32,380 nt of DNA from Candidatus Omnitrophota bacterium (GCA_030691585.1 JAUYEC010000160.1:1-32380), one strand, 5' to 3'. Shown: positions 22,583 to 32,380, counted from the stretch's first letter. A program made the numbers and translations. Notes: generated by a model from the letters alone, not told the origin.

Positions 22583-24277
22583 TTATTGGACTACCCGTAA
22601 AACTTCTTCGGGCGTAGTAAGGCCGGCTAAAACTTTTTCCCAGCCGTCCTGCTTCAATGTCCTCATACCCAACGCGACCGCCTTGTGTTTCATCGCGTCG
22701 GAAGACGTTTTTTGTAAAATCATTTTTTTTATCTCCTCATCGACCTGCAGGATTTCATAAATGCCCGTTCTATTCATATACCCCGTATTATTACACACTT
22801 TACAGCCTTTGCCGCGATAGCCTGTCTGTGCCGCCCCGCCGTCTTTGCCCTCCGGCATACCGAACTTTTGGCATATTTCTTCAGGCAGGCGGTATTCTTC
22901 CTTGCAGTTATTGCATATCAACCTCACCAGCCTCTGGGCAATAAATGCCTCTACCGAAGAGGCAATCAAATACGGTTCGATGCCGATGTCAACCAAACGG
23001 GTGACGCCGCTTACGGCGTCGTTGGTATGAAGCGTGGAAAAAACCAGGTGGCCGGTAAGCGCGGTCTGGATGGTAATATCGGCAGTCTCATAATCCCTGA
23101 CCTCTCCCACCATCATTATATCCGGGTCGTGCCGAAGCATGCTTCTAAGCACTACGGAAAAAGTAAGGTTTATGTTCGGGTTAACCTGCGTCTGTGTAAC
23201 TCCCTTGAGTTCATACTCAACGGGGTCTTCGATGGTAACTATTTTCCTCTGCCGCGTATTAAGACGGCTTAAAAAACTGTATAAAGTCGTAGTTTTACCG
23301 CTTCCGGTGGGCCCGGTTACAAAAATTATCCCGTGAGGCCTTTCCAGCAATTGCTCCAAAACCGCCAGCTCTTTTTGCGACATACCCAAATTAGCTATAT
23401 CGAAAAGCATGGTCGTCGGCAGGATCCTGATCACGATATTTTCACCATAAAGCGCCGGCATTACCGATACCCGCAATTCATATTCTTTATCTCCTATCCC
23501 GACCTTTGCCCTTCCATCCTGCGGGATCCTTCTTTCCACGATATCCAATGAGGACATAATTTTGATCCTTGAGACAATTGGAAGATATAAGTGCTTTATG
23601 GCGTCGGGGACGGAAGTATCATAAAGGATGCCGTCGATTCTGTAACGCAAGCTCAATTCTTTGCGGAAAATTTCTATGTGTATATCCGTCGCCCGGTCAT
23701 TGATTGCCTGCTGGAGGATCTGGTTAACCAGCCTTATTACCGAGACGTCCGCGGACATCTTTTCCAAATCTTCAACCTTGTCATTTTTTTCTTCCGGCTT
23801 TTCTATGCCATATTCCGCCTGATTGGACAACAGCCTCTCAATCGTGTCGGCGCCTACGCCGTAATATTTTCGCGCGGCCTCCATTATGTCCGCGGACACC
23901 GCCAATACTTTTTCCACCCTCAATCCCGAATGCGCCTCAAGGTCATCAACCGGCCAGGCGTCAAGGGGATTAGATACCGCGATGGTAAGCACATTGTCCG
24001 TTATATTTACCGGCATAATCTTATAGTGCCAGATAAATTTAGCGGGCACGGCCTGGACGGCCTTATCGTCGATACTTACGTTCTTTAATTCCAGGAAAGG
24101 GATACCCTGCTGCTCGGCAAGGATCTGCAGCATCCTTCTTTCGGTAACAAACCCCATGCCTATCAAAACTTCGCCGAGCAGTTTTTTCGTCTTCTGCTGC
24201 TCCTTAAGCGCCAGTTCCAATTCCCGCGGAGTTATTATTCTTTTTTCTATAAGTAATTCACCCAACCGCAACGTCAT
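22583..24277 (-). CDS. gspE: T2SS/T4P assembly ATPase GspE/PilB
   Basis: Walker A GPTGSGKTTT, TIEDPVEY, RHDPDIMMVGEVRD, TGHLVFSTLH, tetracysteine motif; MshEN-like RLGELL N-terminus. Confidence 0.95.
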   Translation of the reverse strand: MTLRLGELLIEKRIITPRELELALKEQQKTKKLLGEVLIGMGFVTERRMLQILAEQQGIPFLELKNVSIDDKAVQAVPAKFIWHYKIMPVNITDNVLTIAVSNPLDAWPVDDLEAHSGLRVEKVLAVSADIMEAARKYYGVGADTIERLLSNQAEYGIEKPEEKNDKVEDLEKMSADVSVIRLVNQILQQAINDRATDIHIEIFRKELSLRYRIDGILYDTSVPDAIKHLYLPIVSRIKIMSSLDIVERRIPQDGRAKVGIGDKEYELRVSVMPALYGENIVIRILPTTMLFDIANLGMSQKELAVLEQLLERPHGIIFVTGPTGSGKTTTLYSFLSRLNTRQRKIVTIEDPVEYELKGVTQTQVNPNINLTFSVVLRSMLRHDPDIMMVGEVRDYETADITIQTALTGHLVFSTLHTNDAVSGVTRLVDIGIEPYLIASSVEAFIAQRLVRLICNNCKEEYRLPEEICQKFGMPEGKDGGAAQTGYRGKGCKVCNNTGYMNRTGIYEILQVDEEIKKMILQKTSSDAMKHKAVALGMRTLKQDGWEKVLAGLTTPEEVLRVVQ

Positions 24278-24284
24278 CGCTTCC

Positions 24285-25700
24285 CTACTCCCTGCCGGCC
24301 TGTTCCAGCTTTCCTATACCGCCGGCCATATAAAATTTATCTTCGGCAATTGAATCAAGCCTGCCGCTGATTATTTTTTCGCATCCTTCCAGCGTCTCCT
24401 TAAGGGGAACGTATTCCCCTTTCCTGCCGGTATAAACCTCCGCCGAAAAGAACGGCTGGGTCAAAAAATTCTGCAGTTTTCTCGCTCTCTCGTATAATGT
24501 GTGGTCGGCCTTTGACAATTCTTCTATTCCGATGACCATAACTATGCGCCTTAGCTCGTCATATTTGGAAAATATCCGTAAAACCTCCTGGGCAATGCCA
24601 AAATGCGCGTTCCCGACTATCGCCGGATCCAGGTTGCCGCTTGAGGAAAGCAAAAGGTCTATTGCCGGATAAAGCCCCAATTGGATTTTTTCACGGGACA
24701 AGACCATTATGGAATCCAAATAACTAAAAATCGTAACCACGGCCGGATCGGTCAAATCGTCTGCCGGGACATAGACCGCCTCTATGGCCGTGATCGATCC
24801 GCCTTCCCTTGAACGGATGCGCTCCTGGAAATCGCCTACTTCCGAAGAAAGCGTGGGCTGGTATCCGGTTTCCGAAGGCACGCGGCCTAAAAGCGTGGAT
24901 ATTTCGGCTCCGGCCTGCACAAACCTGAATACATTGTCTATGAAGAAAAGCACGTCTTGATTCTGCTCCTGCAGGTATTCAGCCAGGGTTATGCCGGTCA
25001 GGGCGACCTCAAACCTGGCTCCGGGCGGCTCATTCATCTGGCCAAAAACCATCATAATCTTATCAATCACCTTTTGTTTGACAAACTCCCAATACAGTTC
25101 ATTTCCTTCCCTGATCCTTTCTCCGGCGCCGGTAAATACGCATACTCCCTTATGCCTTTCCACGATATTGTGTATCAACTCCAGGATTAAAATGCTCTTG
25201 CCTAAAGCCGCGCCGCCTAAGATACCGGTTTTACTGCCTTTTGCCATAGGGAACAACAAATCTATGATCTTTATGCCTGTTTCCAAAAGTTCCGATTCTC
25301 CGGTTATCAATCTATCGGGGTTAAGGCGGATCTTAGAAATATTTTTTCTTATAGATGAGGATTCCCGGCATTCAATCTTGCCCTTATTATCTATGGGCTC
25401 GCCGAGGACATTGACAATCCTGCCGAACATCGCTTGGCCTACCGGTATTCTAATCGGCTCTCCTAATGGAACGGCTTTGGCGTTAAATTGCAGGTTTAAA
25501 GTTGAAGCCAACGCGATACACCGCGTAATATTATTTTCGAGGTGCTCGGCGACTTCCAAAACAATCCTGCGGCCGTCAAATGACTTCGTTTCAATAACCT
25601 CATACAAATTGGGCATATCTTCTTCGCGGTCGAACTTTACGTCAACCACCGGTCCCTGCACAGATATAACTTTACCCGCGTTCTTGCTGTTGTTTGCCAT
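24285..25700 (-). CDS. atpD: F1 ATPase beta subunit (divergent)
   Basis: [16 protein letters not shown], Walker [51 protein letters not shown]. Confidence 0.92.
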
Positions 25701-32134: not shown

Positions 32135-32140
32135 TACAAA

Positions 32141-32380
32141 TTACTTCTTTTCCCCTTTTTCCAACCATGTCTTAACCACCGGCTCCTGTCTATTCACCAG
32201 CGTCGTTTTTACAAATTCAACCGTCTTTTTTAATTCAATAAGCTGGTTCTGCAGGGTCTGCAAAGTAGCAGGGCCTTTAAATTCGGTTTCTTTAGCGGCC
32301 GCCCCTTTTAAGCCCGTCCCGGAGACTAACTTTTGCAATGCTTCTTTCGTTTCCCTGACGGATTCGGCGGCCTCTTTTAC
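32141..32380 (-). CDS. C-terminal part of a hypothetical coiled-coil protein (5' end outside the window)
   Basis: Frame is open from the window edge (VKEAAESVRETKEALQK...EPVVKTWLEKGEKK*), ending just upstream of the next gene. Confidence 0.7.
   Translation of the reverse strand, partial: VKEAAESVRETKEALQKLVSGTGLKGAAAKETEFKGPATLQTLQNQLIELKKTVEFVKTTLVNRQEPVVKTWLEKGEKK

Follow-up and report, generated by a model that had tools for sequence, protein, structure and literature searches.

The window studied here is a whole contig of 32,380 nucleotides from Candidatus Omnitrophota bacterium (GCA_030691585.1 JAUYEC010000160.1:1-32380), and its minus strand holds a single unbroken gene row, from 32134 down to 16933, in which the genes of an atypical F-type ATPase run into those of a GspE-GspM machine. 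The locus is a member of the 'symbiotic' F-type ATPase locus kind published for Omnitrophota (Seymour et al., 2023), in a form that carries a second, altered alpha subunit (alpha-prime). The locus kind is already in print. The enzyme is probably a channel-less, hydrolysis-only rotary motor of F-type that works with the GspE-GspM machine and with a surface protein of the type of P474, which is encoded at the head of the row. Textbooks present the F-type ATPase as a motor coupled to an ion gradient, and a widespread clade appears here to have dropped the channel and kept the ring, shaft, stalk and head.

Gene calls were made from the longest open reading frames (ORFs), their translations and Pfam, and NCBIfam scores were judged at the cut-offs of the models. 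All genes of the row lie on the minus strand. P474 (30710-32134) has a signal peptide-like N-terminus and a C-terminal transmembrane (TM) helix and falls into no Pfam or NCBIfam family. It is followed by an epsilon of 76 amino acids (aa) that comprises the beta-sandwich half only (30478-30708; PF02823, 54.3 bits, profile positions 1-78 of 80), a c subunit of 70 aa with Glu in its second TM helix (TM2) and a GRNPS loop (30266-30478; PF00137, 29.4 bits), and a b/delta fusion with one N-terminal TM helix (29519-30238; PF00430 over residues 7-136, PF00213 over residues 89-235). The first alpha (28053-29522; TIGR00962, 523.5 bits against a cut-off of 484.45) has its arginine finger, which in the second alpha, alpha-prime (26565-28034), is replaced by Ile within an SVSIIG motif, the P-loop being intact. 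A divergent gamma (25716-26558; PF00231, 97.2 bits; TIGR01146, 68 bits, below the cut-off of 194.45) and a beta with intact catalytic residues (24285-25700; TIGR01039, 579.1 bits against a cut-off of 462.85) complete the set.

The initial annotation had read the order as epsilon-c-b/delta-alpha-alpha-gamma-beta running into gspE across a 7-bp gap, with all gaps in the block under 30 bp and no atpB between the upstream exported proteins and gspE. ORFs, Pfam matches and translations agree with this in full: from the partial upstream ORF to gspG, gaps and overlaps in gene order are 6, 1, -1, 27, -4, 18, 6, 15, 7, 1 and 17 bp, a range of -4 to 27 bp, and the block contains neither atpB nor any unassigned polytopic ORF. 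Also, the junction of alpha and alpha-prime is spanned by contigs (X2 record 13 and X3 record 21) from one run each of two other studies, so that the tandem is not peculiar to one assembly.

Linkage to the secretion operon

The locus was compared with 18 loci of relatives and with 80 loci from a species-level genome collection, the latter found via beta alone; two contigs were fetched twice. Record titles of the 80 loci name mostly Candidatus Omnitrophota, the rest bearing submitter labels such as Kiritimatiellia, Lentisphaerota and Planctomycetia. An atypical beta is present in 95 loci, 88 of which have at least 600 bp downstream of it, and a full-length gspE lies within 3 kb in 87 of these 88; the linkage to gsp genes is thus conserved. 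The gspE gene follows beta directly in 46 of the 87 loci, and small MshEN-like ORFs or pieces intervene in the other 41. The usual order is P474-epsilon-c-b/delta-alpha-gamma-beta-(MshEN)-gspE-gspF-gspG onward, and a second order, P474-alpha-alpha'-epsilon-c-b/delta-gamma-beta-gspE, is found in 14 loci.

A further tie concerns the second messenger cyclic di-GMP (c-di-GMP). The GspE/MshE-type assembly ATPase of the window (22583-24277, 564 aa; PF00437, 428.5 bits; PF05157) carries a tandem MshE-type c-di-GMP motif at residues 4-56 (NF053729, 64.1 bits against a cut-off of 38). In most relatives GspE is about 710-740 aa long with a C-terminal PilZ (e.g., L028:6570-8717), and the GspE of the window is without PilZ; many relatives have a free MshEN protein after beta. 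In three loci (L056:5156-7096, L077:4083-6314 and L090:3378-5585), from metagenome-assembled genomes labelled Rokuibacteriota or Nitrospirota, beta itself bears one or four copies of MshE-type motifs at its C-terminus (NF053729, 74-253 bits against the same cut-off). No other feature that we found ties the F1 head directly, at the level of sequence, to the way in which the secretion ATPase is regulated, and a full-text literature search found no paper describing an F1 beta fused to an MshE-type motif. The beta-MshEN fusions are new evidence for a functional tie of the ATPase and the secretion machine.

Other joined ORFs were seen as well. A single ORF of 1016 aa joins beta and GspE at L053:6358-9408, and single ORFs join alpha and gamma at L053:4050-6398 (782 aa) and L043:3706-6165 (819 aa). 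Both junctions in L053 are without about 50 residues of the upstream protein and may reflect an assembly or deletion artefact rather than fusion, and none of these joined ORFs is relied on here.

It is conceivable, if unlikely in our judgement, that operon and c-di-GMP control are all that the ATPase and the secretion-like machine share, the ATPase having a job of its own, for instance as an anchor or as a regulator that consumes ATP, and no mechanical link to the machine. A shared operon alone does not show binding, and in known type II secretion and type IV pilus systems an ATPase of GspE type suffices as motor. Against such a separation of tasks stands a linkage kept in 87 of 88 cases across very divergent loci, which has survived two gene orders, together with the fusion, in one lineage, of beta to the c-di-GMP motif of GspE and the conservation of a P474-type anchor gene upstream.

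Subunit a and the membrane parts

No match to PF00119 (subunit a) was obtained across the assembly of the window's genome (1.64 Mb, 206 contigs, 84.05% complete), nor, even at E<=1, in any of five relatives (92-94% complete) that hold the atypical set only. Each of the five relatives with both F-type sets gave a single PF00119 match, located in the canonical operon on a separate contig. Of 40 genomes from the family or order of the window's genome, 21 carry the atypical alpha, 17 the canonical alpha and 10 both. The pattern extends to the phylum: in a sample of 300 genomes, for which a completeness of at least 90% was requested, the atypical gamma was matched at E<=1e-60 in 131, and 57 of these 131 are without PF00119, which is single-copy in all 173 sampled genomes having it. 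In four sampled genomes known to have both operons (G005, G019, G023 and G030), the atypical-gamma profile matched one gamma each. The atypical enzyme occurs in many genomes without any recognisable subunit a.

Two ways of supplying the missing subunit were considered and rejected. A subunit a hidden in the locus is rejected because the blocks of 59 loci holding P474, c and beta contain no unassigned same-strand ORF of at least 80 aa with at least three predicted TM segments. Borrowing of the canonical subunit a by the atypical set is rejected for the genomes without any PF00119.

The assembled 84% of the window's genome yielded no canonical F-type operon. Another contig (C94:35623-40977) encodes two further PF00006 proteins in ORFs of 578 and 483 aa, one being A-like and the other B-like, along with a 183-aa double-hairpin proteolipid and a 608-aa I-like ORF whose V_ATPase_I match is weak (23.4 bits, below cut-off). 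We read this as a putative V/A-type ATPase separate from the atypical F-type set, and it is the only other rotary ATPase found in the assembly. The thought that the atypical set might be the genome's only ATP synthase is accordingly not borne out.

The remaining membrane parts and their attachments are present in a modified form. The ion-binding TM2 carboxylate of c is Glu in 56 of 77 c subunits, Gln in 13 and another residue in 8 (replaced in 21 of 77), and the cytoplasmic GRNPS loop that faces gamma and epsilon is retained in 74 of the 77. At L044:11327-11805 (G039) two tandem c genes have Cys and Val in the carboxylate column, the second with an altered loop, GNRPS. The epsilon of the atypical sets is without C-terminal helices and has a median length of 80 aa in 70 relatives. 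In bacterial enzymes these C-terminal helices are an inhibitor of hydrolysis. NCBIfam delta models align to the b/delta fusion only at about residues 145-238, that is, the delta C-terminal domain, and the delta N-terminal domain is absent. Similarly, both alphas of the window are without the N-terminal delta-binding helix that the order's canonical alphas have. This helix and the delta N-terminal domain are binding partners of each other, and for that reason their joint loss is readily understood.

The only conserved extra membrane protein is P474, whose gene relatives likewise have ahead of epsilon. The protein is exported and anchored by its C-terminus, and comprises a beta-sandwich module in duplicate along with a helical bundle and a single TM helix. 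In relatives the C-terminal module forms the end of proteins that are encoded upstream of epsilon and can reach 2575 aa. An AF2 model of the last 260 aa places the sandwich at 19-90, three helices at 97-178 and the TM helix at 218-259 (mean pLDDT 83). In the ESM Atlas it matches only hypothetical-protein clusters, commonest in Candidatus Omnitrophota, and a PDB fold search with the module returned no match at E<=0.001, the weak ones (E ~0.02) being small carbohydrate- or chitin-binding beta-sandwiches, from which we name no family. The TM helix has conserved Trp, Phe and Gln and no conserved charged residue, so that P474 is not an a-like channel. A complex prediction with three copies of c, residues 1-70 of b/delta and the C-terminal 66 aa of P474, run without controls, gave a score of 0.00 and a mark of 0.32 and is evidence neither way. 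P474 might be regarded as the best candidate for the target or holder of the motor.

That the enzyme still translocates ions, as ATPase or synthase, its subunit a having diverged beyond the reach of PF00119 or having given way to some other membrane protein, for instance one of a different fold encoded elsewhere, appears to us improbable. In its favour, the c Glu is kept in 56 of 77 subunits, the window's included, the c-ring and the TM-anchored b/delta are always kept, and alpha and beta score as ordinary atpA and atpD. PF00119, however, found the canonical a in every relative with a canonical operon, in single copy each, so its silence at E<=1 in all five atypical-only genomes and the want of a polytopic unassigned ORF in 59 loci tell against this possibility, as do the 21 of 77 c subunits whose carboxylate is gone and the single TM helix of P474, in which no charged residue is conserved.

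The head and the proposed motor

In all 16 atypical betas aligned, the P-loop, the Glu of GERxREG and the Walker B Asp are conserved. The alphas differ from one another at the finger, where alignment shows SVSRIG in alpha and SVSIIG in alpha-prime; the alpha of L040 likewise reads SVSRIG, that is, with the Arg present. Tandem alphas occur also in 15 of the 80 loci, the second alpha having Ile, Val or Ala at the finger position, and the first alpha keeps the Arg in all 15 loci and in the window, where that part lies in the locus. Hence all 16 second alphas, including that of the window, are without the finger Arg; they keep the P-loop, share 43-82% mutual identity and are always second of the pair.

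In a FastTree tree the finger-less alphas form one group (support 94), in which, however, L083, a long-branch alpha with Arg, is nested, so that the group is not cleanly exclusive. Their partners, the first alphas, are split between two clades, and the first alpha of the window is orthologous to the single alpha of its nearest relative (support 99). With the second alpha of the window as query, identity is 48-57% to atypical alphas and 39-43% to the canonical alphas of relatives, and atypical and canonical alphas are separate clades (support 100). From these sequence relationships we infer that alpha-prime is an old paralogue that would make the head asymmetric.

It is hardly credible that an F-type operon is here in decay after the loss of atpB, with the second alpha as a pseudogene-like duplicate: subunit a, the N-terminal domain of delta, the C-terminal domain of epsilon and one arginine finger are indeed all gone, but all eight genes are intact ORFs, the catalytic motifs of beta are invariant, the set recurs in 131 of 300 sampled genomes (E<=1e-60), and alpha-prime is itself a conserved protein, its 16 members (43-82% mutual identity) holding the second place of the pair and keeping the P-loop.

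The motor that we consider probable would consist of a head of alpha, alpha-prime and beta, a shaft of gamma and epsilon, a c-ring and one b/delta stalk, anchored in the membrane without an ion channel. Without such a channel there would be no coupling of rotation to an ion gradient, and the enzyme would most likely work in the direction of ATP hydrolysis only, as a motor. Its output would go to the co-operonic, c-di-GMP-responsive GspE-GspM machine, a T2SS-like member of the type IV filament machines, T2SS standing for type II secretion system, and to the P474-type protein. Alpha-prime would make the head asymmetric, with at least one catalytic interface disabled, and c-di-GMP may gate the motor. 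Supporting signs, as far as sequence can give them, are an epsilon without its inhibitory half, the loss of the c carboxylate in 21 of 77 subunits and the fusions of beta to a c-di-GMP motif in three loci. The proposal of the initial annotation, a repurposed rotary motor, is therefore supported as far as genomics goes, the refuting conditions named with it having each been examined and having failed to refute it; its other part, that the motor physically drives secretion, adhesion or motility, goes beyond genomics and is put forward here as a proposal.

Several points weigh against a channel-less motor coupled to the machine. The window's own c keeps the TM2 Glu, as do 56 of 77 c subunits, and alpha and beta clear the NCBIfam cut-offs of ordinary atpA and atpD. 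The c-ring and the membrane-anchored stalk are retained throughout the relatives, which is odd for a motor needing no membrane chemistry and leaves room for an unrecognised channel partner. None of the results shows physical contact of the ATPase with any secretion component or with P474. The absence of subunit a and of a canonical operon from the window's genome means 'not found' in an assembly that is 84% complete, and the contig stops 246 bp upstream of P474, the search for atpB further upstream thus being one of relatives only. In the phylum tally, the E<=1e-60 cut-off of the atypical-gamma profile was our own choice, and genome handles and E-value exponents were copied by hand.

A more specific version of the proposed motor can be offered only tentatively, and we hold it to be possible rather than likely: a c-di-GMP-gated, asymmetric rotary motor with fewer than three working sites, whose c-ring or stalk is joined to the pseudopilus machine or to the P474-type anchor. 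One geometry, suggested by analogy, would have the TM helix of P474 inside the c-ring, the surface protein turning with the rotor. Ac45/Voa1-type helices sit inside the c-ring in V-ATPases. If true, this gated motor would be a third kind of F-type motor work beside ion coupling and the Mycoplasma cases.

Should the coupling to the machine hold, rotary ATPases would have been put to mechanical work at the surface of bacteria that are ultra-small and possibly predatory or parasitic. The system would also serve as a natural experiment, offering a c-ring without subunit a and the rotation of an asymmetric alpha/beta head.

Neighbouring genes and known systems

Downstream of gspE, the row continues on the same strand with the platform protein GspF (21349-22581; PF00482 in two stretches; TIGR02120), the major pseudopilin GspG (20900-21331; PF08334, 109.3 bits), two pseudopilin-like ORFs (20506-21027 and 19872-20525; PF07963 N_methyl), GspK (18932-19912; PF21687), a GspL-like fusion of PilM and PilN (17475-18947; PF11104 and PF05137) and a GspM/PilO-like protein (16933-17475; PF04350, PF10741 and PF04612). 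PF07963 scores 28.2, 24.6 and 16.7 bits on GspG and the two pseudopilin-like ORFs, the last being below cut-off. The GspE, F, G, K, L and M families are thus all present by Pfam. T2SS equivalogs remain below cut-off (GspE, 587.6 against 630.25 bits; GspF, 353.2 against 424), and so do those of the type IVa pilus (PilB, 567.1 against 675.65; PilC, 284.3 against 700). By Pfam and NCBIfam, with GspG, GspK and GspM, the machine looks more like a T2SS than like a type IVa pilus. No secretin (PF00263) was matched in the window, GspC was not seen among its Pfam matches, and there is no PilT-type gene among the window ORFs scanned. The 1.6-Mb genome has six secretin genes (PF00263), on contigs C139, C100, C148, C38, C63 and C86, none of them beside the GspE-GspM operon.

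Further downstream, 449 bp beyond gspM and in the same orientation, lies the gene of a protein of 840 aa (13961-16483, minus strand) that has an F5/8 type C (discoidin) domain. This protein is a possible substrate or adhesin for the machine; its position is not conserved in the relatives compared. A few genes downstream of the secretion genes, at 7138-11634 (minus strand), a protein of 1498 aa is encoded in which SpvB, TcdB middle/N, FG-GAP and RHS-repeat domains were matched; it is a candidate polymorphic toxin resembling Rhs proteins and Tc-toxin shells. At 4742-6938 (minus strand) are the genes of an integrase of phage type (4742-5914) and of a protein resembling phage RepO (6546-6938), and G+C is 0.38-0.41 at 4-8 kb and 0.36 at 12-14 kb, compared with about 0.47 in the ATPase block. 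The phage-type genes and the low G+C suggest a mobile insertion beside the operon.

Non-respiratory ('symbiotic') F-type ATPase genes beside type-4a pilus clusters have been reported from every Omnitrophota class (Seymour et al., 2023, Nat Microbiol, PMC10066038), and the initial annotation's remark on divergent F-type ATPases near pilus genes in this phylum is thereby confirmed. According to the text of that paper, the set occurs in 56 of 111 Velamenicoccia species and lies within 10 kb of pilus genes on 57 of 66 contigs; a role in attachment or motility was proposed, the 'non-respiratory' reading being drawn from alpha phylogeny and co-location, and alpha grouped with Mycoplasma types 2 and 3. 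The passages on this set treat alpha/beta phylogeny and co-location and make no mention of a missing a, retained c and b/delta, a short epsilon, alpha-prime or MshEN fusions, matters on which its supplements may bear. The window shares with these loci a divergent alpha/beta set that adjoins type IV filament genes and is distinct from the respiratory alpha. It differs in that the neighbour is called a type-4a pilus in the text of PMC10066038 and gives T2SS-type Pfam matches in the window, and the Mycoplasma grouping stated there is unlike our profile hidden Markov model (HMM) scores, which place the alpha and beta of the window closer to ordinary atpA and atpD. In a 2026 preprint that deals with complete Omnitrophota genomes, most of the genomes score as being without a complete F1Fo.

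The Mycoplasma type 2 (gliding motor, G1-ATPase) and type 3 (MIB-MIP) systems are similar in being F-derived motors with alpha-, beta-, gamma- and epsilon-like parts that, as far as these sources describe them, coexist with a genuine ATP synthase and serve a surface machine (PMC3369863, PMC11864180, PMC12994834). The window's proteins fail the corresponding models, however, beta scoring 429 bits against 850 for MMOB1670 and 393.8 against 570 for MSC_0618, and alpha 406.2 against 600 for MMOB1660 and 311.6 against 520 for MSC_0619. In a PDB ranking, the G1-ATPase beta (9io5_A) reached 341.8 bits compared with 503 for an ordinary bacterial beta. Membership in Mycoplasma type 2 or 3 is rejected by HMM scores at these NCBIfam cut-offs. 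The Mycoplasma F1-like clusters are not known to have a recognisable c or b, both of which the window locus keeps.

The N-ATPases (atpDCQRBEFAG) are likewise a second F-type set beside the main enzyme, with a long b and no separate delta, and the N-ATPase b model TIGR03321 aligns over residues 7-232 of the b/delta of the window. Nevertheless, the alt_F1F0 models are failed by beta (503.6 against 752), alpha (471.7 against 750.5), gamma (25.7 against 282.35) and b (42.3 against 224.7), and membership is rejected, again by HMM scores at the NCBIfam cut-offs. The gene order of the window is different from that of N-ATPases, as had been noted from the start, and AtpQ and AtpR were not seen in it. 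N-ATPases keep subunit a.

With canonical F1Fo, the window set has in common an alpha and a beta that pass the equivalog cut-offs, the catalytic residues, the c hairpin with its loop motif and a b-type stalk. Unlike F1Fo, it is without subunit a, the delta N-terminal domain, the alpha N-terminal helix and the epsilon C-terminal domain, has an extra, finger-less alpha, and sits in a secretion operon. Finally, the GspE of the window resembles the c-di-GMP-activated assembly ATPases of MshE/GspE type in having an MshEN motif and a T2SSE domain, and the family of loci departs from these systems in that, in relatives, the motif is found also on free small proteins by beta and fused to beta itself.

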